This document shows positions 2,643-21,354 of a stretch of DNA of 32,000 nucleotides, piece by piece (within the stretch, counting starts at the first letter, position 1; every line of letters starts with the position of its first letter). Position numbers and translations under genes: made by a program. This DNA comes from Promethearchaeum syntrophicum. GTDB taxonomy: Archaea; Asgardarchaeota; Lokiarchaeia; Sigyniarchaeales; Promethearchaeaceae. The notes beneath the pieces are model-generated. The model was not told the origin of the DNA, did not search any database, and worked only from the letters and a program-made list of their open reading frames with translations. Location: assembly GCF_008000775.2 (NCBI RefSeq), contig NZ_CP042905.2, positions 1,380,001 through 1,412,000 on the forward strand, given 5' to 3'.

Positions 2643-3383
2643 TTATTGTTTCTGATTTTTAGATTTAATAAAATTACTTGATTTTAGTAAAGTTTCGAAT
2701 TTTCCCGCATCTGACCAGAACCCTTTAAGAAATACTGCTTTAACTTTTCCATCTTTTACATAAAGGTTATTAACGTCGGTAATTTCTAATTCTCCCCGGT
2801 TAGAATACCCGATTTTATCAATGACATTCTGAATCCTATCAAAAATATCCTTTCGATAAAAATATAAGCCCGTTACGCAATAATTACTCTTTGGTTTTTC
2901 AGGTTTTTCTACTATTGATAAAATTTTACCTTTATCCCCTACTTCTGCTACACCAAATCGTTTGGGATCGGGGACTTCCTTTAAAAACAGATAGCAATCA
3001 TTGCTTTTATCCAACTTAAATTCCTCCAGTTCCCTTTTAAATGCATCTTCAAAAATATTATCCCCCAAAATAACGGCAACATCATCTCCTTTTACAACTG
3101 GTGCGGTTAAACTGAGTGCTTGGGCAATACCTCCAGCTCCTTTTTGATAAACATACATTAACTTTACTCCAAACTCGGAACCATCTCCCAACAATCGCAC
3201 AAAATCTCCGACACTTTCACCTCCTAACACAATCACAATTTCCTTGATTCCCGAATTTTTTAAAGTTTTTAATACTTTGAAAATCATCGGCTCATCATAA
3301 ACTGGTAATAAATGTTTATTGGTTACCTTCGTTAAGGGAAGCATTCTGGAACCCGTCCCCCCCGCTAATATTACGCCTTTCAT
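2643..3383 (-). CDS. rmlA: Glucose-1-phosphate thymidylyltransferase (short ~245 aa form)
   Basis: MKGVILAGGTGSRMLPLTKVTNKHLLPV nucleotidyltransferase loop. It sits in an operon with rmlB, rmlD and rmlC. Confidence 0.85.
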   Translation of the reverse strand: MKGVILAGGTGSRMLPLTKVTNKHLLPVYDEPMIFKVLKTLKNSGIKEIVIVLGGESVGDFVRLLGDGSEFGVKLMYVYQKGAGGIAQALSLTAPVVKGDDVAVILGDNIFEDAFKRELEEFKLDKSNDCYLFLKEVPDPKRFGVAEVGDKGKILSIVEKPEKPKSNYCVTGLYFYRKDIFDRIQNVIDKIGYSNRGELEITDVNNLYVKDGKVKAVFLKGFWSDAGKFETLLKSSNFIKSKNQKQ

Positions 3384-4392: not shown

Positions 4393-5406
4393 TTATGTGG
4401 CGCCATATTGATTCTTATAATAATCTAAATAAGCACCCGATGTAACATTATCCACCCATTCTTGATTTTCTAAATACCATTTTATTGTTTCTTTCATTCC
4501 GTGGTCAAATTCATATTTTGGCTTCCAGTTAAGTTCTCGAGTTGCTTTTGAAATATTCATTGCATATCGTAAATCATGTCCGGGGCGATCTCTCACAAAT
4601 GTAATTAAATCTTCGCCCTTTCTCAATTCTTTAAGCAAAAATTTCACCATATCAATGTTAGAAACCTCTGCATTTCCTCCAAAATTATAAATTTCTCCAA
4701 TTTCTCCTTTCAATATTGCATCATAAATCCCTTGGCAATGATCTAATACATGAATCCAATCACGAATATTCGATCCATCACCATAGACGGGAAGTGGTTT
4801 ATCTAATTGAATATTCCGAATCATTAAAGGGATTAATTTTTCAGGAAATTGATATGGCCCATAATTATTTGAACAACGCGTGATTATGACTGGTAGATGA
4901 TATGTATGATAATATGCTAAAACTAGCAAATCTGCAGATGTTTTACTTGAAGAATAGGGACTTCTGGGCCTTAGTGGATTGTCCTCTGTGAATTCTGGAT
5001 CTGTAAAGGAGAGAGAACCGTATACTTCATCAGTTGAAACTTGAAGGTATCGTTCTATCTTGTTCTTCTTTGCTGCATTAAGTAATGTTAGTGTTCCTTT
5101 AATATTTGTTTCAATAAAAATATCTGGATTGGAAATCGAACGATCTACATGTGATTCGGCGGCAAAATTGATTATGTGTGTGATTTTGAATTTTTTTAAG
5201 ATAAAATCAACCAATTCAAAATTGCATATATTTCCTGCAATAAAGTGGTAACGTGGGTTATTTTCGATATCTTTCAAATTTTCATGGTTTCCAGCATATG
5301 TCATGGAATCTAGATTAAATATGTCTGCATTTGTGTCTTCTTTTAGTAAAAATTTAATAAAATTACTACCAATAAACCCTAAACCACCTGTTATTAAAAA
5401 ATTCAT
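4393..5406 (-). CDS. rmlB: dTDP-glucose 4,6-dehydratase
   Basis: 337 aa extended SDR with MNFLITGGLGFIGSNF, HFAAESHVDRS-like AAESHVDRS, STDEVYG and YSSSK motifs. Confidence 0.9.
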   Translation of the reverse strand: MNFLITGGLGFIGSNFIKFLLKEDTNADIFNLDSMTYAGNHENLKDIENNPRYHFIAGNICNFELVDFILKKFKITHIINFAAESHVDRSISNPDIFIETNIKGTLTLLNAAKKNKIERYLQVSTDEVYGSLSFTDPEFTEDNPLRPRSPYSSSKTSADLLVLAYYHTYHLPVIITRCSNNYGPYQFPEKLIPLMIRNIQLDKPLPVYGDGSNIRDWIHVLDHCQGIYDAILKGEIGEIYNFGGNAEVSNIDMVKFLLKELRKGEDLITFVRDRPGHDLRYAMNISKATRELNWKPKYEFDHGMKETIKWYLENQEWVDNVTSGAYLDYYKNQYGAT

Positions 5407-7416: not shown

Positions 7417-7737
7417 AAATTTAAATATTTTCACCTTATTTTTTTATTCTTTTCATTTTTTAGCATATTCTCGAAACAAAATTCTATTTATACCTTGTTC
7501 TCAATTAAATTTTTAATTTATTATGGTATTTCTTTACTTCTAATTTTTATTTATGCCATTTTATAGCAACAAATTATTAAAAAATTTGATTTAACTTCCG
7601 CTAATTCATAAAAAAGAATAGTAATATTCTGGACATTTCTCTGGGCGGTTCTATTTTTCGAAGAAATTATTTCATTATCAAATATTATTAGAGAAATTTT
7701 ATTTATAGGTGGAATAATTATTTTTGGGAGAGAATAA
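7417..7737 (+). pseudogene. Decayed ArnE-like/EamA-SMR-type small membrane protein (paralogue of the 13681..14094 gene) with two in-frame stops and no start
   Basis: A single frame reads ...YYGISLLLIFIYAIL*QQIIKKFDLTSANS*KRIVIFWTFLWAVLFFEEIISLSNIIREILFIGGIIIFGRE*. It aligns with the intact protein: ...VLRGFIWLFVLKKFDLAFAYPFMSLSYIFILFISHFYFNEDINTYKIIGSVLITLGTFF. The TAG at 7564-7566 falls where the paralogue has Trp (TGG). A TAA lies at 7609-7611. The terminal TAA overlaps the ATG of the next gene (TAATG at 7735-7739), which mirrors the overlap in the intact pair. Confidence 0.65.
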
Positions 7738-8081
7738 TGATATTTTATTATATACTATTTACATTTTCTGTTTTTTTAGCTTCAATTGCTCAAATCCTTT
7801 TAAAAATCAGTGCCAATAAGAAATATTTGTCAAAAAAGGATGAATATATTTATCATTATGTTATTTTTTCATTTGGAATTTTCTTACTTACCACCTTTTT
7901 AACAATTTTTTCTTTTAATGGAGGGGTTCCCTTAAAATATGCCCCAATTATTGAATCGTCTCAATTTATTTTTGTTTTAATATTAGGAAAAATATTTCTA
8001 AAAGAGAAGTTATCAAAGATTAAAATTTTTGGAACTCTCCTAATTTTAATAGGTATTCTGGTATTCTGCCTAGATTTTTAA
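7737..8081 (+). CDS. Small 4-TM membrane protein, ArnF-like / EamA-SMR superfamily (putative lipid-linked sugar flippase subunit)
   Basis: 114 aa with four hydrophobic segments. Its C-terminal ...GKIFLKEKLSKIKIFGTLLILIGILVF matches ...GVIFFGEKINRYHVIGISLITIGLFF in the 14091..14441 paralogue. Confidence 0.6.
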   Translation: MIFYYILFTFSVFLASIAQILLKISANKKYLSKKDEYIYHYVIFSFGIFLLTTFLTIFSFNGGVPLKYAPIIESSQFIFVLILGKIFLKEKLSKIKIFGTLLILIGILVFCLDF

Positions 8082-8272: not shown

Positions 8273-10039
8273 ATGTCAAAGAATGAAAATTTTTTATTTA
8301 TTATTAAGAAGCTATTACCTGTATTGATCCTTTTATTTTATATCTTACCATATTTCATTTTAGCAAGAGATGGAAATATTTTAATTCATGATAATTTAGA
8401 TTCAAATGTTATTTGGTTCAAAATTTTAGCTGAAAGTGGGTCATTATTTTCGAATTCAAAAATAATAATTCCTAATATGATGAACGGATTACCAAGATCA
8501 TGTTTTGGTTCAGAATTTAATGTAATTCTATGGTTATATCTTATTTTGGACCCTTACTGGGCTTATGCAATAAATTTAACATTAATGCATATTATTGCTT
8601 ATATTGGAATGTATTTACTATTAAAGACTCATTTTATTCATAATAACAAAAAGAAATTAATTAGTATTGGAGTAGCTTTATGTTTTTCAATCATTCCTTT
8701 TTGGCCTTCAGGAGGGTTGAGTGTAGCTGGTTTGCCTTTAGCTCTATACTCTTTTTTAAATATTAGAAATAATAATTTTTCAAAAAAAGATTTGATAATA
8801 ATTACAATTCTTCCATTTTATTCATCAATTGTTTTATCCTTTGTTTTTTTTTTATTTTGTTTAGGAGTTATTTGGTTATGTGATTCATTCAAATCAAAAA
8901 AAATTAATTGGAAATTTTTCAGTGCAATCTTATTAATGCTATTAATATATCTCATCGTTGAATATAGATTAGTATATAGTTTGCTTTTTGATACTGGATT
9001 TATATCGCATCGAAATGAAATGATTTCCCCAAATTTTTCTATTAAGGACTCAGTTTTATTAGCTAAAGATAATTTTATCTATGGCCAATATCATGCTGCC
9101 AGTTTACATCATTTAATTATTCTTTATTCTGTTATTTTTTCTTTTATTTTGATTTTATATAGAAATTTTAAAATAATTTATCAAAAAGGTTCATGGAATA
9201 TTAAATGTTTATTAAAATCTGAAATTTATTTAATCTCGATTGTTATTCTTATTGGAATTATTTCAATTTGGTATGGTTTCTGGTCATCTTGGATATGGGA
9301 ATCTTTAAAAAGTAGATTTACCATTTTAAATAACTTTAATTTTTCAAGATTTCATTTCTTACATCCATTATTGTGGTATATTTCGTTTGCTATAGCCATA
9401 GATATTATTTATATTCATTTTAATTTTAAAGAAATAAAAAAGAATATACCAATGAAGAGTATTTTAATTTCTCTTATTATTTTATCTCAAATATTCTTCC
9501 TATTTTTTAATAATATTGCAATAAATCAAGATTTAGTTGACCCTGCAGGAAATAAAAATTCTTACAACGATTTTTATTCAATTGAATTATTTCAAGAAAT
9601 TTCTGAAGATATTGGTTTTCCCCAAAAGGATTATCGCATTGTTAGCATTGGATTGTATCCATCTATTGCTCAATTTAATGGTTTTTATACACTAGATGGT
9701 TATATGGCTAATTATCCCTTAGAATATAAGCACGAGTTCCGATATATTATTGAACCTGAATTAAATAAAAATGAAGAATTGAAAAATTATTTTGATAATT
9801 GGGGAAGTCGTTGCTATATATTTGTTGATGAATTGGGAAGAAATTATATGTATACCAAAGATATGGATAAAACTGTTCAAAATCTTAATCTTAATTTCAC
9901 TGCATTAAAAAATCTAGGAGGTAAATTCATTTTTTCAGCGGTTGAAATCCTAAATGAAAATGATATTGATATCAATTTGCTGAAAATATATGAAAATGAA
10001 TTTTCTATTTGGAGAATTTTCTTATATGAAGTGATTTAA
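8273..10039 (+). CDS. Large polytopic membrane protein (588 aa, ~12 predicted helices plus ~170 aa C-terminal soluble domain); candidate GT-C-type transferase, function unknown
   Basis: Long uninterrupted ORF with GGGGA upstream of the ATG. An acidic motif, ILIHDNLDSNVIW, lies in the loop after the first helix. The hydrophilic C-terminal domain includes YRIVSIGLYPSIAQFNGFYTLDGYMANYPLEYK. I recognise no soluble-enzyme motif. Confidence 0.75.
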   Translation: MSKNENFLFIIKKLLPVLILLFYILPYFILARDGNILIHDNLDSNVIWFKILAESGSLFSNSKIIIPNMMNGLPRSCFGSEFNVILWLYLILDPYWAYAINLTLMHIIAYIGMYLLLKTHFIHNNKKKLISIGVALCFSIIPFWPSGGLSVAGLPLALYSFLNIRNNNFSKKDLIIITILPFYSSIVLSFVFFLFCLGVIWLCDSFKSKKINWKFFSAILLMLLIYLIVEYRLVYSLLFDTGFISHRNEMISPNFSIKDSVLLAKDNFIYGQYHAASLHHLIILYSVIFSFILILYRNFKIIYQKGSWNIKCLLKSEIYLISIVILIGIISIWYGFWSSWIWESLKSRFTILNNFNFSRFHFLHPLLWYISFAIAIDIIYIHFNFKEIKKNIPMKSILISLIILSQIFFLFFNNIAINQDLVDPAGNKNSYNDFYSIELFQEISEDIGFPQKDYRIVSIGLYPSIAQFNGFYTLDGYMANYPLEYKHEFRYIIEPELNKNEELKNYFDNWGSRCYIFVDELGRNYMYTKDMDKTVQNLNLNFTALKNLGGKFIFSAVEILNENDIDINLLKIYENEFSIWRIFLYEVI

Positions 10040-10202: not shown

Positions 10203-11486
10203 CTAATAATATCCCATTCCTGAAAAAATTCGATAAAAATATAGAAGACCAGAAAGAAGATGTAAAATTAACAATATCCAGCTTACTATTATTTTGATCT
10301 TTTCTTTATGATTTTTCATGAGTTTAAAGATAAACCACTCTTTTATTATTTCCTTATCCGTTTGCGAAGTTTCTTGTGGATAATTTTTAAGAATATTTTC
10401 ATCGTGGTGTTTACAATCAATTTTTTGTATTTTCAAAAATTCAATAATCGAAAACGTAAATAAAACAGGAATTACAATTTGTCTACCCCATCCAAAATTA
10501 ACATGCAAATATTTATTCCCGTCTTCAGCAAAAAAGTAAAAAGGAATTAAAGAAAATGCAAACGTAATCCAAGAAAACATAAGATATTGGTTTTTTCGCG
10601 ATTGTTTATAAAAAAGAAGAATGCTAAAGGGAAAAGCTATTAAAAGTATTAACGAAAATAATGGATCCTTTGAATAATTAGAACTCACACCAAAAAAATC
10701 AAAAATTATTTTCCTTTCATTTAGTGCAGTAGTTCCATTGTGTAATATTGAAAAGAATTGCATTGTCACTAATATAATAACTGGAATTAAAATTAATGAA
10801 AATTTAAGATATAATTTCCACTTTTTTGGATGATAATAAAGAATAAAACAACACGATGCAGGGAGAAATGCAATCATAAAATTGGGTTTTGCCAGAATAC
10901 TTAAAATTAAGGAGATAAAAAGAAAAAATAAATAAAAATTTTGTTTCTTACCTTTATTTTTTAAAATTTTTATTATTAAAAATGTCGATAAAAAAGCAAA
11001 TGGTATACTCATTATTGAAGTAGGATTATGCCACAAATTCGGAGAACCTTGGCCAAGATAAATGTTAACATTGAAAAAAGTGACATATATTGCCGAAATG
11101 AAAAATTGAATAATTGCTAAAAGCATACAAATTTTTTTTGAAATTTTATTTTCTAAGAAATAATTAAAAAAATTATAAATCAATAAAAAAGTGATCACTT
11201 TTTGTAGAGATAAAATAATAATTGCCGAGGTATTTAAAGAAATTAAAAAAATATTTGAAACTATATAGATTGTATAATGAAATAAGGGATAAGAAATAGG
11301 ATACCCCTCTTTAAAATGTATCTCAGTATAATAAATGTGGGGAAGTAAATCGGAGTCATATTTTAACGTTGTATTATCATTATATACTTGATTATAAAAA
11401 ATATATGATGAAATACAAAAGATTATGATAATAATCGAACAAAAAAATAAGATATCCAGAGCTTTTCTAATTAATTGATTTTTCAT
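10203..11486 (-). CDS. Polytopic membrane protein (427 aa, ~11-12 helices); candidate GT-C-type transferase or polymerase/ligase-like protein, function unknown
   Basis: Long ORF that is hydrophobic throughout. An Asp-rich loop, LKYDSDLLPHIYY, follows the first helix. A hydrophilic insertion, KIDCKHHDENILKNYPQETSQTDKE, precedes the last helix. Confidence 0.7.
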   Translation of the reverse strand: MKNQLIRKALDILFFCSIIIIIFCISSYIFYNQVYNDNTTLKYDSDLLPHIYYTEIHFKEGYPISYPLFHYTIYIVSNIFLISLNTSAIIILSLQKVITFLLIYNFFNYFLENKISKKICMLLAIIQFFISAIYVTFFNVNIYLGQGSPNLWHNPTSIMSIPFAFLSTFLIIKILKNKGKKQNFYLFFLFISLILSILAKPNFMIAFLPASCCFILYYHPKKWKLYLKFSLILIPVIILVTMQFFSILHNGTTALNERKIIFDFFGVSSNYSKDPLFSLILLIAFPFSILLFYKQSRKNQYLMFSWITFAFSLIPFYFFAEDGNKYLHVNFGWGRQIVIPVLFTFSIIEFLKIQKIDCKHHDENILKNYPQETSQTDKEIIKEWFIFKLMKNHKEKIKIIVSWILLILHLLSGLLYFYRIFSGMGYY

Positions 11487-11500: not shown

Positions 11501-12286
11501 TTAAAGTCCAGTATATTTATTATTTTGGGGACTTTGAGTGATAATTATTTTCAATTTTTGAATTGTATCTTGTGTTATTTTTGAATTGAATGTTTCAAAA
11601 TTAAGTTTTATTATGCGATCTGGTAGGTTCCACCATTTTATTTTTATTAATTCTTGAATATTTTCATCAGAAAATCGGTATTTGATAATTTTTGCAGGAT
11701 TTCCACCTACTATGGCATAAGGAGGAATATTTTTATTCACTAGGGAATTAGCACCTATAATTGATCCCGTACCTATTGAAACCCCTCTTAAAATTGTAGA
11801 ATTTGCACCAATCCATACATCATGACCAATTTCGATATTCTTTTCGAATCTATTATACCATTCTTCATTTTCGGGTTTTAATCTATCTACATCAGTATAG
11901 AGAAACCTATGAGTTGTTACACGGGAAAAATCATGTTCTCCAGGTCCAATGGTAACTCCCCATGATATTGAACAAAAATTTCCAATTTTTATTCCCATTA
12001 TGATTGCATTTTGCCCAGTATAACTGTGTTTTCCAATTTGACATCCTGAAATATGATTATATCTACCTATATGAACTGATTTGTCTAAATATGAATTTAA
12101 AATTTTTGAATGATCTCCCACTGATGAATTCTTTTGAATTATTGAATTTTTTATAGTTGTAAATTTGTAAATCTTGGTATTTTGAGAAATCTCAGATTTG
12201 TCTATATTACTATAAATATCAAAAAAGCAATTTTTATCTATTTTTGAATCATTTATTCTTGGGTTCTGGGAATTATTCATTCTCAT
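11501..12286 (-). CDS. Left-handed beta-helix (hexapeptide-repeat) acetyltransferase, Vat/CatB-like; probable sugar N/O-acetyltransferase
   Basis: IEIGHDVWIGANSTILRGVSIGTGSIIGANSLVNKNIPPYAIVGGNPAKIIKYRF followed by ...IKWWNL is the signature C-terminal region of xenobiotic-type hexapeptide acetyltransferases. Confidence 0.8.
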   Translation of the reverse strand: MRMNNSQNPRINDSKIDKNCFFDIYSNIDKSEISQNTKIYKFTTIKNSIIQKNSSVGDHSKILNSYLDKSVHIGRYNHISGCQIGKHSYTGQNAIIMGIKIGNFCSISWGVTIGPGEHDFSRVTTHRFLYTDVDRLKPENEEWYNRFEKNIEIGHDVWIGANSTILRGVSIGTGSIIGANSLVNKNIPPYAIVGGNPAKIIKYRFSDENIQELIKIKWWNLPDRIIKLNFETFNSKITQDTIQKLKIIITQSPQNNKYTGL

Positions 12287-12309: not shown

Positions 12310-13533
12310 CTATTTTAATTCAATTTTAATCTTTTCTTTCACGAATTCTAAATTATTTAAAGATTCTTCCAAAGTATTTCCGGTTACAATTATCTGTCCG
12401 ATTCTGTCAGGACCTACATTAAATTTATTGATTTGATCATTTACTTTATAATCAAAACTTATGTCTTCAATATAAGGCTGTTTCATCAGATTCTCATTAG
12501 TTATTTTAGTAATTGTTCCAGACTGTGAAGATGTTAATAATTCACCTGCACAAGGAATTTTTTTATTTTTAAAATGCACTTCCATTTTGATTCCTAAACA
12601 ATTTTTAATTACATATTCAAAATAATCAAATCCAAAATGTATCCCTACCATTTCTGCCAAACATGTAGCTCCAGTTCTGGCTCCAATTTCAAGAACATAG
12701 ACTTTATTATCGCTTAGGATGAAATCAGCATTAATTGCACAATTATTCAGCTTTAATGCGTGAATTGAATATTTTAATTGAGTTTCTATATCCCTTTGAA
12801 TTTCTGTACTTAAATTATAAGGAACATAGTGTCCGATAGGAACTCCTGTGCTACCTTGAAATATCATGTCTCCATGAGGCATTATAAACTTAATTTCGTC
12901 ATTTAGAATAAAAGCTTGAGCTCCAAATTCTTCTCCAATAATAAATTCTTCGATTATAAAATAGTCTTTTTTTGTAGTCTCCATTACATAATCAAACGCT
13001 GCACTTATTTCACTTTCCTTATCAACACGAATTATTCCTCTGCTACCAGAGCTATCCACGGCTTTGAATATTGCAGGTTTATTTAATTTCTTAAATGCTT
13101 CATTAGATTGATCCAAAGTAGAAACATTGAAATATTTCGCTGTTCTTACATCGGAATTAATAAATGCATCTTTCATTTTTTTTTTATCAGTCGATAATTG
13201 GACTGCTTCAAAAGATGGCCCTGAGAGGTTTAATTCATCACAAATTTTTCCTAAAGTTATTAATGCAACATCTGTTCCAGCAGTGCATACCCCATCGATG
13301 TTTTCATTTTGAGCAATTTTTGCAACTTTTTCATAAGCTGTGGTATCTTCATAAATATTTTTATCTGAAAATTGAAATCCTGGATAATTTCCTTCATAAC
13401 TAACGACTAATGTCTCATACCCAAGTTCTTTAGATTTTTTTATTAATGGAACTTGATAAACTCCGGCTCCCAATATCATAATTTTTTTTTTCATAATTCT
13501 AACACTTTTTTCTATAGCAGATTTATATTTCAT
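12310..13533 (-). CDS. ATP-grasp domain carboxylate-amine ligase
   Basis: KIMILGAGVYQVPLIKKSKELGYETLVV forms the pre-ATP-grasp Rossmann-like domain. It is followed by ...KPAIFKAVDSSGSRGI...IIEEFIIGEEFGAQAF...INADFIL...VYVLEIGARTGA, the typical ATP-grasp core. The true start may be the internal MKKKIMILG (about 13494). A poly-A tract of ~10 nt follows that ATG. Confidence 0.8.
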   Translation of the reverse strand: MKYKSAIEKSVRIMKKKIMILGAGVYQVPLIKKSKELGYETLVVSYEGNYPGFQFSDKNIYEDTTAYEKVAKIAQNENIDGVCTAGTDVALITLGKICDELNLSGPSFEAVQLSTDKKKMKDAFINSDVRTAKYFNVSTLDQSNEAFKKLNKPAIFKAVDSSGSRGIIRVDKESEISAAFDYVMETTKKDYFIIEEFIIGEEFGAQAFILNDEIKFIMPHGDMIFQGSTGVPIGHYVPYNLSTEIQRDIETQLKYSIHALKLNNCAINADFILSDNKVYVLEIGARTGATCLAEMVGIHFGFDYFEYVIKNCLGIKMEVHFKNKKIPCAGELLTSSQSGTITKITNENLMKQPYIEDISFDYKVNDQINKFNVGPDRIGQIIVTGNTLEESLNNLEFVKEKIKIELK

Positions 13534-13680: not shown

Positions 13681-14094
13681 ATGAAAAAATCAAAGAAATC
13701 ATATAATAAAGAATACATATTAATTTTAGTCCCAGTAACACTTCAAGTATTAGGAACTACATTTGGAAAGATTGGTGCTTCTAATATTTCTATTGAAGAT
13801 TTTCAAATAATACAATTTTTTAATTTTTTTACGATTATTGCTTGTATAGTTTTAGTTTTACGCGGTTTCATTTGGTTATTTGTTCTTAAAAAATTTGATC
13901 TTGCGTTTGCTTATCCTTTTATGAGTTTATCTTATATTTTTATCTTATTTATTTCTCATTTCTATTTTAACGAAGACATTAATACATACAAAATAATTGG
14001 TTCTGTATTAATTACATTAGGGACATTCTTCCTTTCTATTGGAGAACTAAAAAAAAATATTATGGTCCCCAAAAAAAAAGAGGTAAAGATATGA
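13681..14094 (+). CDS. Small 4-TM membrane protein, ArnE-like / EamA-SMR superfamily (putative lipid-linked sugar flippase subunit 1)
   Basis: 137 aa with four hydrophobic segments. It overlaps the next gene by 4 nt (ATGA). Size, pairing and proximity to an ArnC-like GT2 mirror ArnE/ArnF. Confidence 0.65.
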   Translation: MKKSKKSYNKEYILILVPVTLQVLGTTFGKIGASNISIEDFQIIQFFNFFTIIACIVLVLRGFIWLFVLKKFDLAFAYPFMSLSYIFILFISHFYFNEDINTYKIIGSVLITLGTFFLSIGELKKNIMVPKKKEVKI

Positions 14095-14441
14095 TTGAAT
14101 ATTTTCTTATATTAATTTCTGTATTTTCAACTGTAATTAGCCTTATCTTATTTAAAAAGGCTTCAGGAATTCTTAAATATGAAAACGGATTGTTAAAATT
14201 TATTAAATCACTCTTTAATTATTATTTAATTTCTGCAATATTCTTAGTTGGGGTGTCTGTTGTATCATATAATCTTGCGTTAAGCTCATTGGATCTAATA
14301 ATTGTTTTCTCCTTCAATAGTTTAACACCCTTGTTTGTTTTTTTTTCTGGTGTTATCTTTTTTGGTGAAAAAATCAATCGGTATCATGTTATAGGAATTA
14401 GTCTTATCACTATTGGATTATTCTTTATTAATGTTGCATAA
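14091..14441 (+). CDS. Small 4-TM membrane protein, ArnF-like / EamA-SMR superfamily (putative flippase subunit 2)
   Basis: 116 aa and translationally coupled to the 13681 gene. It is a paralogue of the 7737..8081 gene. Confidence 0.65.
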   Translation: MIEYFLILISVFSTVISLILFKKASGILKYENGLLKFIKSLFNYYLISAIFLVGVSVVSYNLALSSLDLIIVFSFNSLTPLFVFFSGVIFFGEKINRYHVIGISLITIGLFFINVA

Positions 14442-14681
14442 TTTTAATAATGAAATTAACTCCAAGTTATATTTTAATAGTTTAAAAACAACAACCCAAA
14501 AAGATATAATTTACAAAATCAGTGGACGAAAAAGTTTAATAAACCGAATTACTATTTTCAGTTAATCTAGAGGAATAACTTAAAAATAGTGAATTCTAAC
14601 AACACTAGATCCAAAAAAACTATAAGAATAATACAATCCTATTAATGAGATTAATTTATTATCCCTAATAAAAATGAAAAA

Positions 14682-15620
14682 TTAAATAATTTTTTCTCGA
14701 ATTGCATAAACTTGATTATTTTTAACAGTTTTAATAATTCGGATAAGATATTCCCCAATGAGTCCTAAAGAAAAGAGTATCATTCCAGATAAAAACAAAA
14801 TTGCCACGATTATGCTTGTCCAACCAGTTACTGATACACCATTAATAAAATATTTTAAAATCTTAATTACTCCTACTATAAAGCTTGCAATGGAAATGAT
14901 AAAGCCAAAAATACTTACAATTCTTAAAGGAAGAGTTGAGTTCATAAGAATATTGTCTAAAGCCATTTTTACATATTTTGTAAAAGTATAATTTGATTTT
15001 CCATATAAACGAGTGTCATGTTTCACAGAAACATTTTTAATTCTATTTGTTATGGTTAATAACTTTGGGCCTATTACCAAATTTGAATTATCAGAATTAA
15101 GGATCTCGTCAATAATGATCCTCCTAATAATACGAAAAGATCCTGATTTCAATTCTTTAGGTTTTTTAAAAAAATAAGAGTTCAAGAGATTGGCACATGA
15201 ACTTGCTAAATTTCTAAAAAAGCCATGTTTTTTCTTTTTTGGATAACCGACATATATATCAGTTTCAGGATCCATTTTTATAGCTGAAATTAAGACAGAA
15301 ATCTCTTCAGGAGGATGTTGAAGGTCATCATCCATTGTAATTATAAATTTTCCCTTTGAAAAATTGAATCCACATAGAATTGCATTGTGTTGTCCAGAAT
15401 TTTTCAACAACTGAATTATTTTAACTTTATGATCATCTAAATTTAGTTCTTTTAATATTTTCCAGCTATTATCTTTACTGCAATCATCTATAAAAATTAA
15501 TTCATAATTAGGAGTTATGGATTCAAAGGTTTTACTCAACCTTGAATGTAATTCTTTCAAAGATGTTTCCGAATTATACACGGGAATAACTACAGAATAT
15601 TCTATTATAGATTCAACCAT
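14682..15620 (-). CDS. GT2 polyprenyl-phosphate glycosyltransferase, ArnC/GtrB/DPM1-like, with two C-terminal TM helices
   Basis: YSVVIPVYNSETSLKELHSRL...YELIFIDDCSKDNS...LLKNSGQHNAILCGF...IITMDDDLQHPPEEI, then two C-terminal helices ending in LGLIGEYLIRI. The motif order and architecture match ArnC as I remember it (VIPVYNE...IDDGSSDNS...NYGQHSA...LDADLQNPPEEI...GEYIGRI). Confidence 0.85.
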   Translation of the reverse strand: MVESIIEYSVVIPVYNSETSLKELHSRLSKTFESITPNYELIFIDDCSKDNSWKILKELNLDDHKVKIIQLLKNSGQHNAILCGFNFSKGKFIITMDDDLQHPPEEISVLISAIKMDPETDIYVGYPKKKKHGFFRNLASSCANLLNSYFFKKPKELKSGSFRIIRRIIIDEILNSDNSNLVIGPKLLTITNRIKNVSVKHDTRLYGKSNYTFTKYVKMALDNILMNSTLPLRIVSIFGFIISIASFIVGVIKILKYFINGVSVTGWTSIIVAILFLSGMILFSLGLIGEYLIRIIKTVKNNQVYAIREKII

Positions 15621-16093
15621 ATTTCATCAAATTTTATGAATTATTTTATATTAATTTTTATTAATTAATGATAATTTAATAATTTCATTAGAGAAGTGAC
15701 ATTAGATCATAATTTAAATAAGGGAAATATATAAGATATCAAGATATGACAATTAAATTATCAAATATAGATAAAAACTTTATAATTTCAAAGTTGGAAT
15801 TGTTGGTGCACTTAGTATTAAAAGAATCTTAAAAATGTCCTAAAAATATATTGTTAATTTTTTAAGAAGTTAAAGTAGTGCGTTTAGCTTTGATTAGGAA
15901 TATTTATCTTGAATTATTACATCTATCAATATTTTTATATTAGAAATTAGTTTTATAGGTAAATGAATAATCTTATTCAAAAAAAGTAAAATTGATTATT
16001 CTTAATTTTATTTTTGTATCTTAAGGAAAAAAAAGGAGCAAATACAACAAAAAACATGATTACTATATTTTAGAAAAATGGAATTGATTTATA

Positions 16094-17101
16094 TTGAATA
16101 ATATAATAATTTGTAAGAGAAATGAAGGTTTAGATGTTTTAAAAGGAATTCTAATTATATTGATGATAATTGGTCATATATTTAGTTATAGTCTGGGTTA
16201 TAATGCTCTTAATCCTATTCGGTATGCAATTTATTCTTTCCACATGCCACTATTTATGGGTATATCAGGTTATTTATTAAATATTAATTTTCTCAAACAA
16301 GCTTCTATTATACAAATTCTAAAGAAATATTTTTTCCGCTTATTAATTCCTGTGATGATATCATGGATAATGTGGTATTTTTTCAAATTAAAGAAATATA
16401 ATAGTTTATTTGAAGATCCAAAATTATTCGAATTTATTTTTTTTCCACAAGTTTATCTCTGGTATATATATTCTCTTTTTGTTTATATTTTGATTATCTC
16501 CTTGTTTTTAAGAATTTCAACAAAATTTTATGTTCTCTTTCTATTTTCAATATTTCTAGCCCTATTTTTTGTTTATTTCATTGATTATTCATCAACAATT
16601 GTATCGAAAAGTGGAAAATTAGAATTATCATTCTATACTTATCGTCCTCATTTCTTCTGCTTTTTAATTCTTGGAATCTTAACAAAACAGAAAAATTGGA
16701 TGATAAAGTCTCATAAAATAAGCATTTTTACAATTATTATTCTAATTTTTGTCAGAATTTTGAATTATTATTATTTCAACGCTTATTTATATAATATCGA
16801 TTTTTATTTCTTAAATTTCTTTCTTATCCTATACCTTTTACCCCATGCAATTAATTGGAAATTCAAATATTCTACATTTCTTCAAGATATTGGAAAAAAA
16901 TCTATGCCAATATATCTTTATAATTTATTCTTAATTGTTGCATATACGGATAAAAGATTGTTTTCATGGTATTTAGTCACATTTTCTTGCGAGTTTATAC
17001 TAATTTTAGTAATTGTTCGACCAAAATTGATAAAAGATTATGTATATGGTAAGAAAAAAATAAAAATATCTTATAACAATGGAAATGAAAAATTTGACTG
17101 A
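16094..17101 (+). CDS. Membrane acyltransferase family 3 (OatA/WecH-like O-acetyltransferase)
   Basis: 335 aa with ~10 helices. The N-terminal LDVLKGILIILMIIGHIF with an early conserved His is typical of acyltransferase-3 proteins. The start codon is uncertain (TTG at 16094 in the track). Confidence 0.65.
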   Translation: MNNIIICKRNEGLDVLKGILIILMIIGHIFSYSLGYNALNPIRYAIYSFHMPLFMGISGYLLNINFLKQASIIQILKKYFFRLLIPVMISWIMWYFFKLKKYNSLFEDPKLFEFIFFPQVYLWYIYSLFVYILIISLFLRISTKFYVLFLFSIFLALFFVYFIDYSSTIVSKSGKLELSFYTYRPHFFCFLILGILTKQKNWMIKSHKISIFTIIILIFVRILNYYYFNAYLYNIDFYFLNFFLILYLLPHAINWKFKYSTFLQDIGKKSMPIYLYNLFLIVAYTDKRLFSWYLVTFSCEFILILVIVRPKLIKDYVYGKKKIKISYNNGNEKFD

Positions 17102-17277
17102 GTTCAAAAAAGATAATTTAAAAATATGATAGAGTTTTTTTTTAAGAAGGGTAATTATTAGAAAAATATTATTGAAAAGTATTTCAATAAATAAAAAATG
17201 AGAATTATATAAAATATAATTTTCACGTAAGAGATCTTGGAAAGTATTAAAATATAATAAAAGATAGAGATTTAAAA

Positions 17278-18444
17278 ATGAAATCGATGATCCCATTTAA
17301 TAAACCATATTATCCTCAAAATGGAATTAAATATGTGAAAGATACCTTTAAAAGAAGAAAAATATCTGGAGATGGCTACTATTCAAAAAGAATAAGTAAG
17401 TTCATTGAAGAAAAATTTGGAGTAAAAAAGGCATTATTTGTTACGTCAGGTAGTGCGGCACTTGATATGGCTGCAATTATATTAGATTTACAACCTCAAG
17501 ATGAAGTAATTATGCCTTCATATACTTTTGTATCTACAGCAAATTCAGTAATGTTAAGAAATGCCAAAGTTATATTTGTAGATATTGATCCAAAAACTAT
17601 GAATATTGATCCAATTGAAATTGAAAAATTTATAACTCCAAATACCAAGGCATTGTTTGTTGTACATTATGCTGGAATTTCATGTGATATGGGAAAGATT
17701 ATGGATATAGCAAAGAAATATAATATTAAAGTTATTGAAGACGCAGCTCAAGGAGTAAATTCAAAATATAAAGATAAATATCTTGGTTCTATTGGAGATA
17801 TTGGATGTTATAGCTTTCATGAGACAAAAAATTACGTTTGTGGTGAAGGGGGTGCTTTTTTGCTAAATGATGAATCTTTAATTGAAAGAGCAGAAATCAT
17901 TTGGGAAAAAGGGACAAATCGACGTAAATTTTTCAGAGGGGAGGTTGATAAATATTCATGGATTGACATTGGATCCAGTTTTTTGGGTTCTGATATGCTA
18001 GCTGCTTTTTTATATGCACAATTTGAAGCTTTAGAAAAAATAAACTTTCTGAGAAAAAATGTTTTTGAATATTATTATGAATTATTAGAACCATTGGAAA
18101 AACAAAATTTTCTTAAACTTCCATTTATTCCAAATAATTGCACACCAAATTATCATATGTTTTATATTATATTGAAAAATAACTATGAAAGAGATGAAAT
18201 GATGAATTTTTTAAAAAATTCAGGAATCCATGCTATTTTTCATTATATCCCGCTTCATTCTTCACCAATGGGGAGAAAATTAGGGTATAAATCCGAAGAT
18301 TTACCTTTAACTGAAGAATATGCTGGTAGATTATTGCGTTTACCAATGTATGCAGAATTAAAAAAAAGAGAAATTGAATATATTGTTCAAAAAATCTCCA
18401 AAATGATGAAATTATTACAACCAAGAAATATCGATAATATTTAG
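17278..18444 (+). CDS. wecE: dTDP-4-amino-4,6-dideoxyhexose (Fuc4N-type) transaminase, DegT/WecE family
   Basis: MIPFNKPYY...ISGDGYYSKR...LFVTSGSAALDMAAIILDLQPQDEVIMPSYTFVSTANSVMLRNAKVIFVDIDPKTMNID...SFHETKNYVCGEGG (PLP lysine)...FHYIPLHSSPMG...RLLRLPMY. This follows the E. coli WecE motif series closely, as recalled from memory. Confidence 0.8.
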   Translation: MKSMIPFNKPYYPQNGIKYVKDTFKRRKISGDGYYSKRISKFIEEKFGVKKALFVTSGSAALDMAAIILDLQPQDEVIMPSYTFVSTANSVMLRNAKVIFVDIDPKTMNIDPIEIEKFITPNTKALFVVHYAGISCDMGKIMDIAKKYNIKVIEDAAQGVNSKYKDKYLGSIGDIGCYSFHETKNYVCGEGGAFLLNDESLIERAEIIWEKGTNRRKFFRGEVDKYSWIDIGSSFLGSDMLAAFLYAQFEALEKINFLRKNVFEYYYELLEPLEKQNFLKLPFIPNNCTPNYHMFYIILKNNYERDEMMNFLKNSGIHAIFHYIPLHSSPMGRKLGYKSEDLPLTEEYAGRLLRLPMYAELKKREIEYIVQKISKMMKLLQPRNIDNI

Positions 18445-19416: not shown

Positions 19417-21354
19417 ATGATAAACAAAAATTATTCTACTAAAACTAAGGTCATCTTTAACTCTATTTCTATTTTTTTGCTTATCATTAGTTATTTATTT
19501 AATATTAGCGACTCTTTCGCATTAGGCAAAATATTTATTAACATTTTTATTGAAAAAAAAATAGATACTATTCAAATTGTCTTTGTAGTACTTTCAGCTC
19601 TCATTCTTTTCATTAATATTTTATGTTTACTTTCCTATTCGTTAAAGAAATCTATCGAAATGAAATTGTTTCTTATTTTTTCATTTATATTATTTTATAT
19701 TATAATTATTGGTCCTGGTCTTAATACATTAAGAATCCATGACCATGATGCTATGCTTCATCTTTATATTGTCGAGGGGATTAATTCATCATTAGAATTT
19801 CCATATTATTCTCAATATTCAAATTATATCTTTCACCGGTTTCTTGCCTTCATATCCAGAATAACAAAAATAAATCCGCACAGTTTATTTTTATTTTTTC
19901 CACAATTTATTATGTACCTTTTATATTGTATTGGTGTAATACTGATTTTGAGATTATTAGTTGATAAAAACTCCATTTTTTATAAAAAAAATATCTATTT
20001 GGTAACAATGTGCAATCCTTTTTTGATTTCTGTTTTTGCAGGTGCAAAACCCATTTCATTCTTAATCTCAATTTTTCCTCTAATTTTATATCTTTCAATT
20101 AAAACAACAAAATTAAATCTCATTATCTTGTCAATCCTGTTATATATTTGTGTAGGTTCTCATGTACATGGTTATTTTATTTTAGTTATGATAATTTGTT
20201 TTTTAATCATAAAGTTGATTGTTAGAATTTATTTTAAAAAAGCAAATAATCTTAAGATTATTTCTTATTTAAAAGTAGGATTTTTCTTAATTTGCTTAAT
20301 ACCTTTTCTTTTTCCTTCACTATTATATAATTTGTTTAATTTTTTATCAGTAGATAATTTAATAATAGAAATTTTTGTGAATGAGTTTTATTCTGGTAGT
20401 TTCATAAAAAGATATGGTGTATTTCAGCATGAAAATTTTTTCTCCTTTCTTTATTTTAGCCACAGTATTATCGGAATGTCAATATTTTGTTATGTTATAC
20501 CGTTTTTTGTTGTTTTTTTAAACCAATTCAGTTTTTATTACATTAAAAATAGTAAAACAATTTTGTTTGATAATAAAATGCAATTACGTTTTTTTTGTGA
20601 CTTTTATTTCATTTTCATTATAATTAGTTTATTTTTTGGATCTAGTATTGATTTTTGGAGATTTTCTTGGATGGCTTGTAGTATATATTTCATAATTTTT
20701 ATCTATTTTTGGTTAGTTTTTTTAAAAGAACAGAAAAGTATTTTTTCCAATATTAAAAACCAATTTATTTTAAGAACTTATACAAAATTTCAAGATAGAA
20801 TACAAAACATGAAAAATAAATTAATAAGAAAGGTTTCGCTTATTGAATTTAAAAAAAAAATTGACGCATTATGTTTAATAATTGTTTTATTATTTTCTTT
20901 GCTAAATTTCTCCTTTTTTTCAGTACTTCCTTATTCAAATGAACAATATAATACTTCAGAATGGATTAATGAAAATACGCCTACTGATTCCATTTTTTTA
21001 CTTCATCCTTATTTTGAAAATTTTATTAAAGGAATGACGTTGAGAGATACTACTGAAAATTGCTCTAAATTATTTGATCTTAATTTGAATTCTTCAGAAA
21101 GATCAAAATCATTTTTCTTATTGAATAATTCCGATTTTAGATTTAGTAACCATTCAAAAGGTTACTTATCTTTAGATATGAATTATATCAATAGATTAAA
21201 AATGGAGATTTTATGGATAGGAGAGCCTTGCGTTGGTAATGGAGAAGAGTGTGTTCCGTTAAATGTGCTCTATAATGAATTATACAATTCAGATTTATTT
21301 AAATTAGTTTATAATCAAACGAATATTTTAATATATGAAATAAATATCATTTGA
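19417..21354 (+). CDS. Large polytopic membrane protein (645 aa, ~14 helices plus ~140 aa C-terminal soluble domain); candidate GT-C-type transferase, function unknown
   Basis: Long ORF with GAGG upstream. A His/Asp-rich loop, LRIHDHDAMLHLY, follows the third helix. The C-terminal hydrophilic domain reads NTSEWINENTPTDSIFLLHPYFENFIKG.... Confidence 0.75.
   Translation: MINKNYSTKTKVIFNSISIFLLIISYLFNISDSFALGKIFINIFIEKKIDTIQIVFVVLSALILFINILCLLSYSLKKSIEMKLFLIFSFILFYIIIIGPGLNTLRIHDHDAMLHLYIVEGINSSLEFPYYSQYSNYIFHRFLAFISRITKINPHSLFLFFPQFIMYLLYCIGVILILRLLVDKNSIFYKKNIYLVTMCNPFLISVFAGAKPISFLISIFPLILYLSIKTTKLNLIILSILLYICVGSHVHGYFILVMIICFLIIKLIVRIYFKKANNLKIISYLKVGFFLICLIPFLFPSLLYNLFNFLSVDNLIIEIFVNEFYSGSFIKRYGVFQHENFFSFLYFSHSIIGMSIFCYVIPFFVVFLNQFSFYYIKNSKTILFDNKMQLRFFCDFYFIFIIISLFFGSSIDFWRFSWMACSIYFIIFIYFWLVFLKEQKSIFSNIKNQFILRTYTKFQDRIQNMKNKLIRKVSLIEFKKKIDALCLIIVLLFSLLNFSFFSVLPYSNEQYNTSEWINENTPTDSIFLLHPYFENFIKGMTLRDTTENCSKLFDLNLNSSERSKSFFLLNNSDFRFSNHSKGYLSLDMNYINRLKMEILWIGEPCVGNGEECVPLNVLYNELYNSDLFKLVYNQTNILIYEINII

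Follow-up and report, generated by a model that had tools for sequence, protein, structure and literature searches.

Introduction

Among related systems, ArnC uses UDP-L-Ara4FN as its donor and acts on the amino sugar only in its N-formylated form (bioRxiv 10.1101/2025.01.29.634835), and GtlA uses UDP-galactose (PMC8035078). YkoS and GtlB are predicted to be GT-C partners of GT2 enzymes, and galactosylation of LTA requires GtlB (PMC5836110; PMC8035078), a member of the DUF6044 family that uses C55-P-galactose (PMC8035078).

The stretch analysed here, hereafter the window, is 32,000 nucleotides of DNA from Promethearchaeum syntrophicum MK-D1. A sequence-only reading had proposed an Arn-like module at 13681-18444, made up of a coupled pair of small membrane proteins, a GT2, a membrane acyltransferase and a WecE-type transaminase. 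All five open reading frames are present at the coordinates given below, and the E-value of every one of their family assignments lies far beyond chance. On balance, we favor the view that positions 7737-18444, together with rmlA and rmlB at 2643-5406, form a multi-component ('three-component') transmembrane glycosylation system. We infer its donor, flipping and acceptor, and the system would probably be fed by an N-acylated dTDP-4-amino-4,6-dideoxyhexose.

Results

The precursor genes rmlA and rmlB had been read as a source of dTDP-4-keto-6-deoxyglucose, and their family assignments stand. The dTDP-glucose 4,6-dehydratase RmlB (4393..5406, minus strand) scores 468 bits against TIGR01181, above the cut-off of 365, and is the predicted maker of WecE's 4-keto-6-deoxy substrate. 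The RmlA-type glucose-1-phosphate thymidylyltransferase, a short form predicted to supply dTDP-glucose (2643..3383, minus strand; the aglF homologue DSAG12_01835 of PMC11284389), scores high against TIGR01207 but, at 230 bits, below the cut-off of 361. RmlC in the window lies above its model cut-off; RmlD has a high score, yet falls under its own. The transaminase (17278..18444, plus strand) is a WecE-type dTDP-4-keto-6-deoxy-D-glucose 4-aminotransferase, with 562 bits against NF008687 (cut-off 375) and 515 bits against TIGR02379 (cut-off 435). Its sequence shares 54% identity with that of E. coli WecE, the HETKN motif being conserved; the two models and the identity place it with the dTDP-specific WecE type rather than with UDP-sugar-specific enzymes.

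The GT2 (DSAG12_01846; 14682..15620, minus strand; PF00535, 112 bits) is a membrane-anchored polyprenyl-phosphate glycosyltransferase of the ArnC/GtrB/DPMS architecture, with two C-terminal transmembrane helices at about residues 231-249 and 264-282. The likeness of its motifs to those of ArnC was borne out, as it and E. coli ArnC are 35% identical over their full length (DDDLQHPPEEI and DADLQNPPEEI in the two proteins), and in the PDB it matches ArnC (E 2e-43) and GtrB sll0501 (E 5e-40) best. In a neighbor-joining tree without support values, the GT2 does not group with GtrB or DPMS and falls inside a clade in which linkage to WecE-like genes and DUF6044 recurs, with ArnC outside this clade and GtrB farther away. 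Among the non-redundant loci retrieved with the GT2, a WecE-like gene of at least 200 bits occurs in 8 of the 20 with a GT2 of at least 170 bits versus 3 of the 98 with a weaker one (Fisher p = 2e-5). Donor specificity is not readable from the sequence of the GT2; the proposed dTDP donor is drawn from synteny.

The window is not arranged as a single operon, which counts against our explanation. The parts of the module are spread over both strands in four or more transcription units, and WecE, co-oriented with the AT3, Fcl and Mem645 genes described below, lies in a different unit from the GT2. The window also carries genes for GDP-fucose, dTDP-rhamnose and pseudaminic acid, and a published survey lists the GT2 as an aglD homologue (PMC11284389). 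These observations would suit independent genes of a mixed surface-glycan island, in which the GT2 is an AglD/AglJ-type Dol-P-hexose (mannose/glucose) synthase that helps to complete N-glycans, and dTDP-Fuc4N(Ac) from the WecE route goes to a cytoplasmic glycosyltransferase. We consider this unlikely: the cut-off of the AglJ model is 325 bits and the GT2 reaches only 28, no obvious WecF-like cytoplasmic glycosyltransferase for Fuc4NAc transfer is found in the window, and the clade of the GT2 is enriched for WecE linkage. Also against it, tight operons in unrelated bacteria and archaea bring together rmlAB, GT2 and DUF6044 with a WecE-like gene, an acyltransferase gene and small EamA genes.

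These operons came from some 30 related loci retrieved by pattern matching, those centered on DUF6044 being sampled independently of those centered on the GT2. The genes that recur near the closest GT2 relatives and near DUF6044 are rmlA/rmlB and those for a WecE-like transaminase, an enzyme that forms an N-acyl group, the GT2, a candidate small flippase and DUF6044 itself; this set was observed for Lokiarchaeal-like contigs and for Methanosarcina, Methanothrix, Methanogenium and Virgibacillus. In the loci of the three nearest GT2 relatives (54-61% identity), WecE, ATP-grasp, long and short EamA-half and DUF6044 genes adjoin the GT2 in varying order. WecE orthologues (380-532 bits) are linked to GT2 or DUF6044 in at least 11 loci, DUF6044 is linked to GT2 in ten, and rmlA accompanies the module in seven. 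The order is DegT-GT2-hexapeptide-ATP-grasp...DUF6044 in Methanosarcina, rmlB-MT-rmlA-DegT-GNAT-GT2-EamA-EamA / DUF6044 in Methanothrix and one further locus (L135), rmlA-rmlB-GT2-x-EamA-DegT-DUF6044 in Virgibacillus and rmlA-DegT-DUF6044 in Tuberibacillus; one Firmicute DUF6044 locus has the Fdt (3-amino) route and GtrA. An EamA-half pair, GtrA and LPG_synthase_TM replace one another in the flippase position, as ATP-grasp, GNAT and hexapeptide enzymes do in the N-acyl position, a non-orthologous displacement that is expected for functional slots. This recurrence of the set in archaea and bacteria supports the core idea of the sequence-only reading.

In the window, the N-acyl position is likely held by two enzymes outside the original list. 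The first is an ATP-grasp carboxylate-amine ligase with an L-amino-acid-ligase C-terminal domain (12310..13533, minus strand; ATP-grasp_4 and LAL_C2), which may aminoacylate the 4-amino group of the sugar. Its PDB matches are 4dim (1e-81) and BacD/BL00235 (1e-14), and its orthologues (145-304 bits) adjoin the GT2 in six loci. The second is a hexapeptide-repeat acetyltransferase (11501..12286, minus strand; Hexapep, 62 bits), whose PDB matches are CatB/Vat at 1e-28 and which may acetylate either the amino sugar or the aminoacyl group on it; in one Methanosarcina locus its homologue lies between the GT2 and ATP-grasp genes. The AT3 membrane acyltransferase (16094..17101, plus strand; TTG start; PF01757, 96.5 bits) had been counted in the module. 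Its family and coordinates stand and its membership does not, as none of the related loci has a homologue. It was rejected as the N-acylating step, since it belongs to an O-acyltransferase family and is unconserved in these loci, and it probably O-acetylates a surface glycan of some kind and lies outside the conserved module. Fcl is likewise not a conserved partner.

The small membrane proteins had been read as an ArnE/ArnF-like flippase. The long subunit (13681..14094, plus strand; 137 aa; PF00892, 32.8 bits) and the short subunit (14091..14441, plus strand; 116 aa; 38.8 bits) both exceed the Pfam EamA gathering score of 28.2. They are 30% identical paralogues with about four hydrophobic helices each, translationally coupled through a 4-nt overlap (ATGA). 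The likeness is real and weak: the pair scores 38 bits for ArnF (the long subunit; cut-off 99) and 25-30 bits for ArnE (cut-off 92), and BLASTP gives a 30-residue match to E. coli ArnF and no match to E. coli ArnE. A third EamA-half protein of four transmembrane helices (7737..8081, plus strand; 114 aa; PF00892, 33.0 bits) lies directly upstream of DUF6044 and is a candidate short subunit, as it clusters with short subunits adjoining DUF6044 in four loci. Its original GenBank name is ArnE. It is very unlikely that these proteins export metabolites or drugs (SMR/DMT-like) or transport nucleotide sugars while another protein flips the lipid-linked sugar. The generic EamA/DMT transporter is their only family above threshold and they weakly match the SMR protein EbrA (20 bits), but ArnF and ArnE are their best specific models, and in global alignment they have the AYP...S(L/M)S motif in common with ArnE/F. 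The long subunit is kept in tandem with the short in six loci, the tandem adjoins GT2 and DUF6044 across distant taxa, and GtrA or LPG_synthase_TM takes its position elsewhere; its companions are GT2 and GT-C enzymes, not drug pumps.

The "ArnT-like" enzyme missing from the original list is probably the DUF6044 protein (8273..10039, plus strand), a member of the YkoS-GtlB family (PF19510, 685 bits) and the proposed terminal extracytoplasmic transferase. Its AF2 model (pLDDT 89, pTM 0.91) has a GT-C fold with PglB, STT3, AftD, Pmt4 and ArnT as top Foldseek matches, and D40 and D43 in the first loop are invariant. Membership of DUF6044 does not fix the sugar, because GtlB uses C55-P-galactose. 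Two other membrane proteins were considered for this role. Mem645 (DSAG12_01850; 19417..21354, plus strand), from a rare family and with D111 and H115 invariant, is the last gene of the AT3-WecE-Fcl unit. Its AF2 model (pLDDT 78) is also of GT-C fold, matching STT3, PglB, AglB, DPY19 and ArnT (E 1e-6 to 3e-3). An orphan polytopic protein (10203..11486, minus strand; 427 aa, about nine transmembrane helices) ends the ATP-grasp operon, its place in the module being uncertain; neither Pfam nor NCBIfam matches it, the related loci lack a homologue, and its UniRef label 'RgtA/B/C/D-like GT domain' was not reproduced. One lipid-linked donor can supply several GT-C enzymes in known systems (PMC8035078), and either protein might serve instead of or besides DUF6044. 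This is quite unlikely, as the recurrent partner is DUF6044, and Mem645 is absent from related loci, has only 16 homologues in a set of 1.8 billion representatives, and shows no significant relation of its family to DUF6044 by hhalign (17.8% probability).

Discussion

The family assignments suggest that RmlA and RmlB would make dTDP-4-keto-6-deoxyglucose and that WecE would convert it to a dTDP-4-amino-4,6-dideoxyhexose, most likely Fuc4N if C4 has the configuration we suppose. In the cytoplasm, the ATP-grasp ligase (through aminoacylation), the hexapeptide acetyltransferase or the two together would then N-acylate the amine, a step suggested by the conserved slot adjoining the GT2. Judging by its architecture, the GT2 would place the sugar on polyprenyl phosphate, long and short EamA-half proteins may act as a heterodimer to flip the lipid-linked sugar, and DUF6044, given its fold, may transfer it to an extracytoplasmic acceptor. 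The carrier had been taken as undecaprenyl phosphate; since the host is an archaeon, it is presumably dolichyl phosphate. In published N-glycans of P. syntrophicum, residues of 304.13, 311.08 and 303.10 Da are left unassigned, and simple N-acyl or aminoacyl Fuc4N masses do not match these within 0.015 Da, which counts against our explanation.

The core logic of the sequence-only reading, a dTDP-linked amino-6-deoxyhexose served by an ArnC-like GT2, a small flippase and an outside GT-C enzyme, survives the refuting conditions proposed with it; its composition and boundaries call for revision, as both DUF6044 and the third EamA-half gene lie outside 13681-18444. The gene set is common to an Asgard archaeon, methanogens and Bacillus relatives. 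That an amino sugar is attached to a membrane lipid, flipped and delivered to a surface target is a known scheme, and the general outline is not new. The proposed N-acylation parallels the formylation by ArnA in the Arn system, which ArnC requires. In contrast to the proposed dTDP donor, the GT2 relatives for which we found donors use UDP-sugars (ArnC, GtlA) or GDP-mannose (DPMS). What is new is the proposed combination of sugar and enzymes, which has not been described before.

A predicted GT-C transferase of the DUF6044/YkoS family

The sequence-only reading of 13681-18444 had outlined an Arn-like pathway that ends with transfer outside the membrane by an ArnT-like GT-C enzyme, a component it could not find. 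Our data place a candidate for this step outside those coordinates, at 8273-10039, where the encoded protein matches PF19510 (DUF6044) at 685 bits over nearly its full length (gathering score 27). Its homologues, several of them labelled YkoS by database sources, come from Bacillales, Syntrophomonas, methanogens and Thorarchaeota. The AlphaFold model of the protein, made from a 42-sequence alignment, reached a pLDDT of 89 and a pTM of 0.91, and the only significant structural neighbours that Foldseek returned for it are GT-C enzymes (PglB, STT3, AftD, Pmt4 and ArnT; probability 0.99-1.00, TM-scores 0.36-0.51). The model shows a polytopic N-terminal module with a GT-C core and an extracytoplasmic domain, and the first external loop carries an acidic motif (HDNLDS) in which D40 and D43 are invariant in the 42 sequences. 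Because of its family, its modelled fold and these two residues, we take DUF6044 to be the predicted ArnT-like component of the pathway.

PDB sequence searches with DUF6044 were empty, and a literature search found no paper under that name. YkoS of B. subtilis has been predicted to be the GT-C partner of the GT2 YkoT, with a target that is not known, and Listeria GtlB (49% identity to YkoS) is the GT-C required for LTA galactosylation (PMC5836110; PMC8035078; PMC11081497). Overexpression of YkoT has been seen to produce a phenotype of lipid-carrier sequestration (PMC11081497).

An ArnC-like GT2 that groups outside GtrB

The GT2 (14682-15620, minus strand) had been described as closely following ArnC. 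It carries PF00535 and two C-terminal TM helices (231-249 and 264-282), and it aligns with E. coli ArnC along the full length (residues 9-311) at 35% identity, with MDDDLQHPPEE where ArnC has LDADLQNPPEE. The layout is of the ArnC type, with a GT-A domain, a DxD motif and juxtamembrane helices ahead of the two C-terminal ones, and ArnC is the top match in the PDB (2e-43), followed by Synechocystis GtrB sll0501 (5e-40) and Pyrococcus DPMS (2e-23); identity to phage GtrB is 30-34%. The resemblance to ArnC is upheld by these comparisons, but the name is not, as the GT2 scores 182 bits on the ArnC equivalog NF007986 against a cut-off of 529, a margin wide enough that we rejected its filing as ArnC. 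It also misses the AglJ model TIGR04182 (28 bits against a cut-off of 325) and the equivalog cut-offs of PgfS and PpgS. No protein in the window matches the models of ArnA, ArnD or ArnT, and the transaminase of the window is WecE. The published glycoproteome lists the GT2 (DSAG12_01846) merely as an aglD homologue, a label that rests on BLASTP only (PMC11284389).

An alternative is that the GT2 belongs with the GtrB proteins and has no tie to amino-sugar genes in its relatives. In a neighbour-joining tree of 38 GT2 sequences, which lacks support values and is indicative only, the protein groups with Lokiarchaeal-like, Methanosarcina and L004 proteins (L004 being one of the related loci retrieved via GT2 or DUF6044). 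The next groups outward are proteins linked to ATP-grasp or GNAT genes and then a group from Methanogenium, L135 and L052; E. coli ArnC lies outside all of these, and Synechocystis and phage GtrB lie further out, together with Leptospira and Listeria proteins. The tree sets the GT2 outside GtrB, and its relatives do carry amino-sugar genes, which does not fit the alternative. Nor did the other outcome that would have counted against the module, namely small proteins of the drug-efflux SMR type or an unrelated transaminase for UDP-sugars, come about. The text describing the ArnC structures offers no residue-level handle for dTDP versus UDP specificity.

Paired EamA-half proteins in the proposed flippase position

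The proposed ArnE/ArnF-like pair is encoded by a long gene (13681-14094, 137 aa) and a short one (14091-14441, 116 aa) that overlap by ATGA, and the two products, each with about four hydrophobic helices, are 30% identical paralogues. A third small protein, also short (7737-8081, plus strand, 114 aa), is encoded directly upstream of DUF6044, and all three pass PF00892 EamA (32.8, 38.8 and 33.0 bits; gathering score 28.2). The arrangement is that of ArnE/F, namely tandem, overlapping, paralogous 4-TM genes of roughly 110-130 aa near a polyprenyl-phosphate GT2 and a GT-C, and global alignment with ArnE/F reveals a common four-helix register with an AYP...S(L/M)S motif. ArnF and ArnE are also the best specific models of the pair, but at 25-38 bits, well short of their cut-offs of 99 (NF002816) and 92 (NF011625), and pairwise BLASTP gave a 30-residue match to E. 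coli ArnF and none to E. coli ArnE. With curated cut-offs missed by such margins, we rejected filing the small proteins as ArnE/ArnF. The gene at 7737-8081 was called ArnE in the first GenBank annotation.

Across related loci the small proteins form two subfamilies, long and short, and each operon has members of both, as in L001, L006, L052, L132, L135 and L142. The window encodes one long subunit and two short ones, the 116-aa one coupled to the long and the 114-aa one clustering with short subunits from L052, L132 and L135, which raises the possibility of alternative heterodimers. The window holds no protein of the GtrA family (PF04138, GtrA_DPMS_TM), and in L137 and L134 a GtrA stands in place of the EamA pair. 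An LPG_synthase_TM protein recurs in DUF6044/GT2 loci that have neither the EamA pair nor GtrA, which suggests that such systems have a third type of flippase. The small-transporter position is filled across loci by an EamA-half pair, a GtrA or an LPG_synthase_TM protein. Proteins of this last type, which corresponds to the flippase domain of MprF, are encoded at 6817-7677 of L131, 13681-14673 of L004 and 10814-11881 of L136.

Amino-sugar supply and proposed N-acylation

The WecE-type transaminase (17278-18444) proved to be what it had been called. It passes both curated models (score against cut-off, 562 vs 375 for NF008687 and 515 vs 435 for TIGR02379), is 54% identical to E. coli WecE and keeps the PLP-lysine motif SFHETKNY, while on the ArnB model it scores 210 vs 631. 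The two models that it passes carry the names of different C4 epimers (galacto vs gluco). The rmlA (2643-3383) and rmlB (4393-5406) genes are likewise confirmed: RmlB passes its model, and RmlA is present together with RmlC and RmlD. Neither WecF nor WecD is present in the window.

Two enzymes of the window could form an N-acyl group, an ATP-grasp ligase (12310-13533, minus strand) that is most closely related, among characterised enzymes, to the L-amino-acid ligases BacD and BL00235, and a CatB-like hexapeptide transferase (11501-12286, minus strand). The position next to the GT2 is taken in different loci by an ATP-grasp ligase, a GNAT or a hexapeptide transferase, and this N-acyl position and that of the small transporter both behave as functional slots. 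The membrane acyltransferase at 16094-17101 (AT3), which the sequence-only reading had counted as part of the module, is a true PF01757 protein (96.5 bits vs a gathering score of 31), but its membership is unsupported, as none of about 30 related loci has a homologue. AT3 enzymes are O-acyltransferases, and the nearest model to this one is the fucose O-acetyltransferase NolL; on these three grounds we rejected it as the N-acylating enzyme.

Conservation of the gene set in other genomes

The closest relatives of the GT2 (54-61% identity) come from three informative, non-redundant metagenomic loci that are probably Lokiarchaeal, judging by a GC content of about 25% in two and by the synteny of one with other parts of the window. 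All three carry a WecE orthologue (478-532 bits) as well as an ATP-grasp ligase, and two of them also the long and short EamA-half pair and DUF6044; the partner genes adjoin the GT2 in varying order and orientation. AT3, Fcl (18457-19395) and the 645-aa membrane protein Mem645 (19417-21354) are absent from all of them. More distant relatives were collected by scanning one-genome-per-species and metagenome collections, with duplicates removed. A WecE-like gene (at least 200 bits) is present in 8 of 20 loci whose GT2 scores at least 170 bits, compared to 3 of 98 with a weaker GT2 (Fisher p = 2e-5). On this scale ArnC of E. coli reaches 152 bits. Either WecE or an N-acyl-forming enzyme is found in 15 of the 20 strong-GT2 loci. 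A compact arrangement, GT2-EamA-EamA-DUF6044, is seen in L052.

An independent test started from DUF6044, using nine loci chosen only on contig size and taxon. Methanosarcina sp. WWM596 has the order DegT-GT2-hexapeptide-ATP-grasp-PGA_cap-LPG_synthase_TM-DUF6044, with matches to the window proteins of 477 bits (WecE), 323 (GT2), 304 (ATP-grasp) and 66 (hexapeptide). In Methanothrix and a related contig, rmlB-methyltransferase-rmlA-DegT-GNAT-GT2-EamA-EamA faces DUF6044, and in Methanogenium DUF6044 faces EamA-EamA-GT2-GNAT. Among bacteria, Tuberibacillus has rmlA-DegT-DUF6044, and Virgibacillus necropolis has rmlA-rmlB-GT2-x-EamA-DegT-DUF6044 on a single strand. The x of this last locus (L141, 3844-4530) encodes a 228-aa protein without a Pfam match, between the GT2 and the single EamA gene, in the place that an N-acyl enzyme or a second EamA subunit occupies in other loci. 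A Thorarchaeote locus has a GT2 plus a GtrA fusion, and one sampled locus has DUF6044 alone. With the window included, DegT is present in 7 of 10 DUF6044 loci and a GT2 lies within 8 kb in 8 of 10. In a Firmicute locus (L137, 1956-9680), DUF6044 accompanies GtrA and an FdtA/hexapeptide/DegT route, which is a 3-amino route (3-acetamido-3,6-dideoxyhexose), and several dTDP-derived amino-deoxy sugars may therefore be within the reach of DUF6044 systems. In the window a polyprenyl-phosphate GT-A is genetically linked to a GT-C and to a candidate small flippase, and the linkage is kept in other genomes.

The surrounding glycan island

The open reading frames of the sequence-only reading were all recovered, and by exact look-ups those of the window correspond to DSAG12_01839 through DSAG12_01850. 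They lie in a low-GC surface-glycan island (22-27% GC across 7-27 kb, 30-33% at either end of the window), several of whose proteins are nearest to bacterial or methanogen ones, WecE with its likeness to the E. coli enzyme being an example. Both features are consistent with horizontal acquisition. A 96-aa antisense ORF at 17006-17296 (minus strand) is almost certainly not a gene, because it is of low complexity and overlaps both AT3 and WecE across their junction.

A second protein with a modelled GT-C fold is Mem645 (DSAG12_01850, 19417-21354, plus strand), co-oriented with WecE, AT3 and Fcl. It belongs to a rare family: an exhaustive HMMER scan of 1.8 billion representatives gave 16 matches, a word-indexed homologue search nothing, and PDB sequence searches were empty. 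Its closest structures are STT3, PglB, AglB and DPY19, D111 and H115 are invariant, and profile-profile comparison with DUF6044 was not significant (17.8% probability). Mem645 may use the lipid-linked sugar instead of DUF6044 or alongside it. In the RefSeq re-annotation (WP_147662912.1) just the final 181 residues of Mem645 are kept, and the full-length gene may thus be under-annotated. Mem427 (DSAG12_01841, 10203-11486, minus strand), an orphan membrane protein with about nine TM helices, is encoded at the end of the ATP-grasp/hexapeptide unit, as its last gene. It has no Pfam or NCBIfam match, no homologue in the related loci and no profile-profile match to the Mem645 family or DUF6044; its UniRef label, 'RgtA/B/C/D-like glycosyltransferase domain', was not reproduced with Pfam.

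The island also contains a pseudaminic-acid-type nonulosonate cluster (23263-29150) with an RfbH/PseC-like aminotransferase, a PseG-like protein (115 vs 154), PseH (153 vs 93), PseI (460 vs 340) and a CMP-sugar cytidylyltransferase, after which come genes for a class-III aminotransferase and an aldo-keto reductase; L001 shows synteny with the last four genes. Genes for GDP-L-fucose supply are dispersed at 864-1925, 5991-7070 and 18457-19395 (ManC, Gmd at 589 vs 415, and an Fcl-like protein at 437 vs 500), the Fcl gene lying between WecE and Mem645, and no obvious fucosyltransferase was seen in the window. A 476-aa protein at 21388-22818 (minus strand), with faint matches to TIGR04396 'surface carbohydrate biosynthesis protein' (26 bits) and to the C-terminus of Epimerase_2, may be a glycosyl- or glycerophospho-transferase.

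Proposed mechanism and significance

Given the families and folds observed here, we infer the donor, the order of the steps, the flipping and the acceptor from synteny, the parts themselves being spread over several transcription units. RmlA, RmlB and WecE would make dTDP-4-amino-4,6-dideoxyhexose, which the ATP-grasp ligase and/or the CatB-like hexapeptide transferase would N-acylate. The GT2 would put the sugar onto dolichyl or polyprenyl phosphate, the long and short EamA-half dimer would flip it, and DUF6044 would hand it to an extracytoplasmic acceptor. There is precedent for N-acylation ahead of lipid loading in ArnC, which needs an N-acylated amino sugar (bioRxiv 10.1101/2025.01.29.634835).

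The published N-glycans of P. syntrophicum (304.13-Pen-Hex-HexNAc, -311.08 and -311.08-303.10) contain three residues that were left unassigned (PMC11284389). We enumerated the masses of Fuc4N with an amino acid and acetyl, methyl, formyl, carbamoyl, phosphate or sulfate groups against 304.127, 311.08 and 303.10 Da; no simple Fuc4N derivative matched, and only contrived carbamoyl combinations fit 303.10. The product would therefore be found elsewhere, on other proteins, lipids or polymers, or was not made under those culture conditions.

Taken together, we tentatively propose, as a reading somewhat short of probable, that DUF6044/YkoS GT-C proteins and ArnC-like GT2s make up a widespread but hitherto unrecognised class of three-component systems, common to Bacillaceae, methanogens and Asgard archaea, that decorate cell surfaces with N-acyl or N-aminoacyl amino-6-deoxyhexoses. 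The same tentative reading has the GT2 as the first polyprenyl-phosphate glycosyltransferase known to use a dTDP-sugar, the ATP-grasp enzyme as a sugar-amine:amino-acid ligase, and the P. syntrophicum product as Dol-P-linked (aminoacyl)Fuc4N destined for a surface protein, glycan or lipid. If true, it would give the orphan DUF6044/YkoS family a testable function class, the target of B. subtilis YkoST having been open since at least 2018. It would also add dTDP-amino-deoxy sugars to the UDP- and GDP-sugars that serve polyprenyl-phosphate glycosyltransferases as donors, and make a bacterial type of three-component surface decoration common to methanogens and an Asgard archaeon, probably by horizontal transfer. 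P. syntrophicum is the only well-studied cultured Asgard archaeon, and its cell surface matters for models of eukaryogenesis.

The combination had been suspected to be uncharacterised, and a literature search for a GT-C with aminotransferase, dTDP and flippase together found no paper. In the literature that could be searched, no description appears to exist of a dTDP-amino-dideoxyhexose supply coupled to an ArnC-like GT2 and a DUF6044/YkoS-type GT-C, of the ATP-grasp/GNAT/hexapeptide N-acyl slot, of the EamA-half heterodimer or of such a system in methanogens and an Asgard archaeon. As a mechanism the scheme is textbook, and the advance is a variant with family-level annotation instead of a fresh principle, though it provides a useful and testable lead on the long-orphan YkoST-type systems.

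Comparison with known systems

Three-component transmembrane glycosylation is a well-known scheme (PMC8035078; PMC11127046). The Gram-positive systems GtlA/GtcA/GtlB (Listeria LTA galactosylation), CsbB/GtcA/YfhO and the orphan YkoT/YkoS of B. subtilis share with the window a membrane-anchored GT-A that has a pair of TM helices at its C-terminus, a small flippase candidate with four TM helices and a polytopic GT-C; the GT-C of the window belongs to the Pfam family (DUF6044) that database sources call YkoS. The window differs in its host, an archaeon without teichoic acids, in having an EamA-half heterodimer and not GtrA/GtcA as flippase candidate, and in its coupling to rmlAB, WecE and an N-acylating enzyme, which implies an N-acyl-4-amino-4,6-dideoxyhexose from a dTDP donor, whereas the Gram-positive systems use Gal or GlcNAc from UDP-sugars. 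The GtrA/GtrB/GtrC systems for O-antigen glucosylation (Shigella and Salmonella phages; Synechocystis sll0501) likewise share the three-component layout and the GT2 architecture, but the window has no GtrA, a GT2 placed elsewhere in the tree and linked amino-sugar genes.

The Arn pathway (PmrHFIJKLM; ArnB/A/C/D/E/F/T) has 4-transamination, N-acylation, an ArnC-like GT2, a tandem overlapping 4-TM pair and a GT-C in common with the window. It works on UDP-Ara4N and not a dTDP-6-deoxyhexose, with ArnB in place of a WecE-type transaminase and ArnT/PMT_2 in place of DUF6044; the ArnA formyltransferase/decarboxylase and ArnD were not found in the window, and archaea have no lipid A. The Fuc4NAc branch of enterobacterial common antigen, or ECA (RffG/RffH/WecE/WecD/WecF), shares the RmlA/RmlB/WecE chemistry to dTDP-Fuc4N; there, however, WecF transfers the sugar from dTDP-Fuc4NAc onto Und-PP-linked lipid II in the cytoplasm, whereas in the window a polyprenyl-phosphate GT2 and a GT-C stand where WecF and WecD act in ECA. 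In the Haloferax route of AglD/AglJ with AglR and AglS, a GT2-made Dol-P-monosaccharide is flipped and then added outside by a GT-C-like enzyme. The window resembles these archaeal N-glycosylation steps in its predicted Dol-P-sugar GT2, flipping and outside GT-C-like transfer, and differs from them in its flippase and GT-C families and in the amino-sugar supply genes attached to it.
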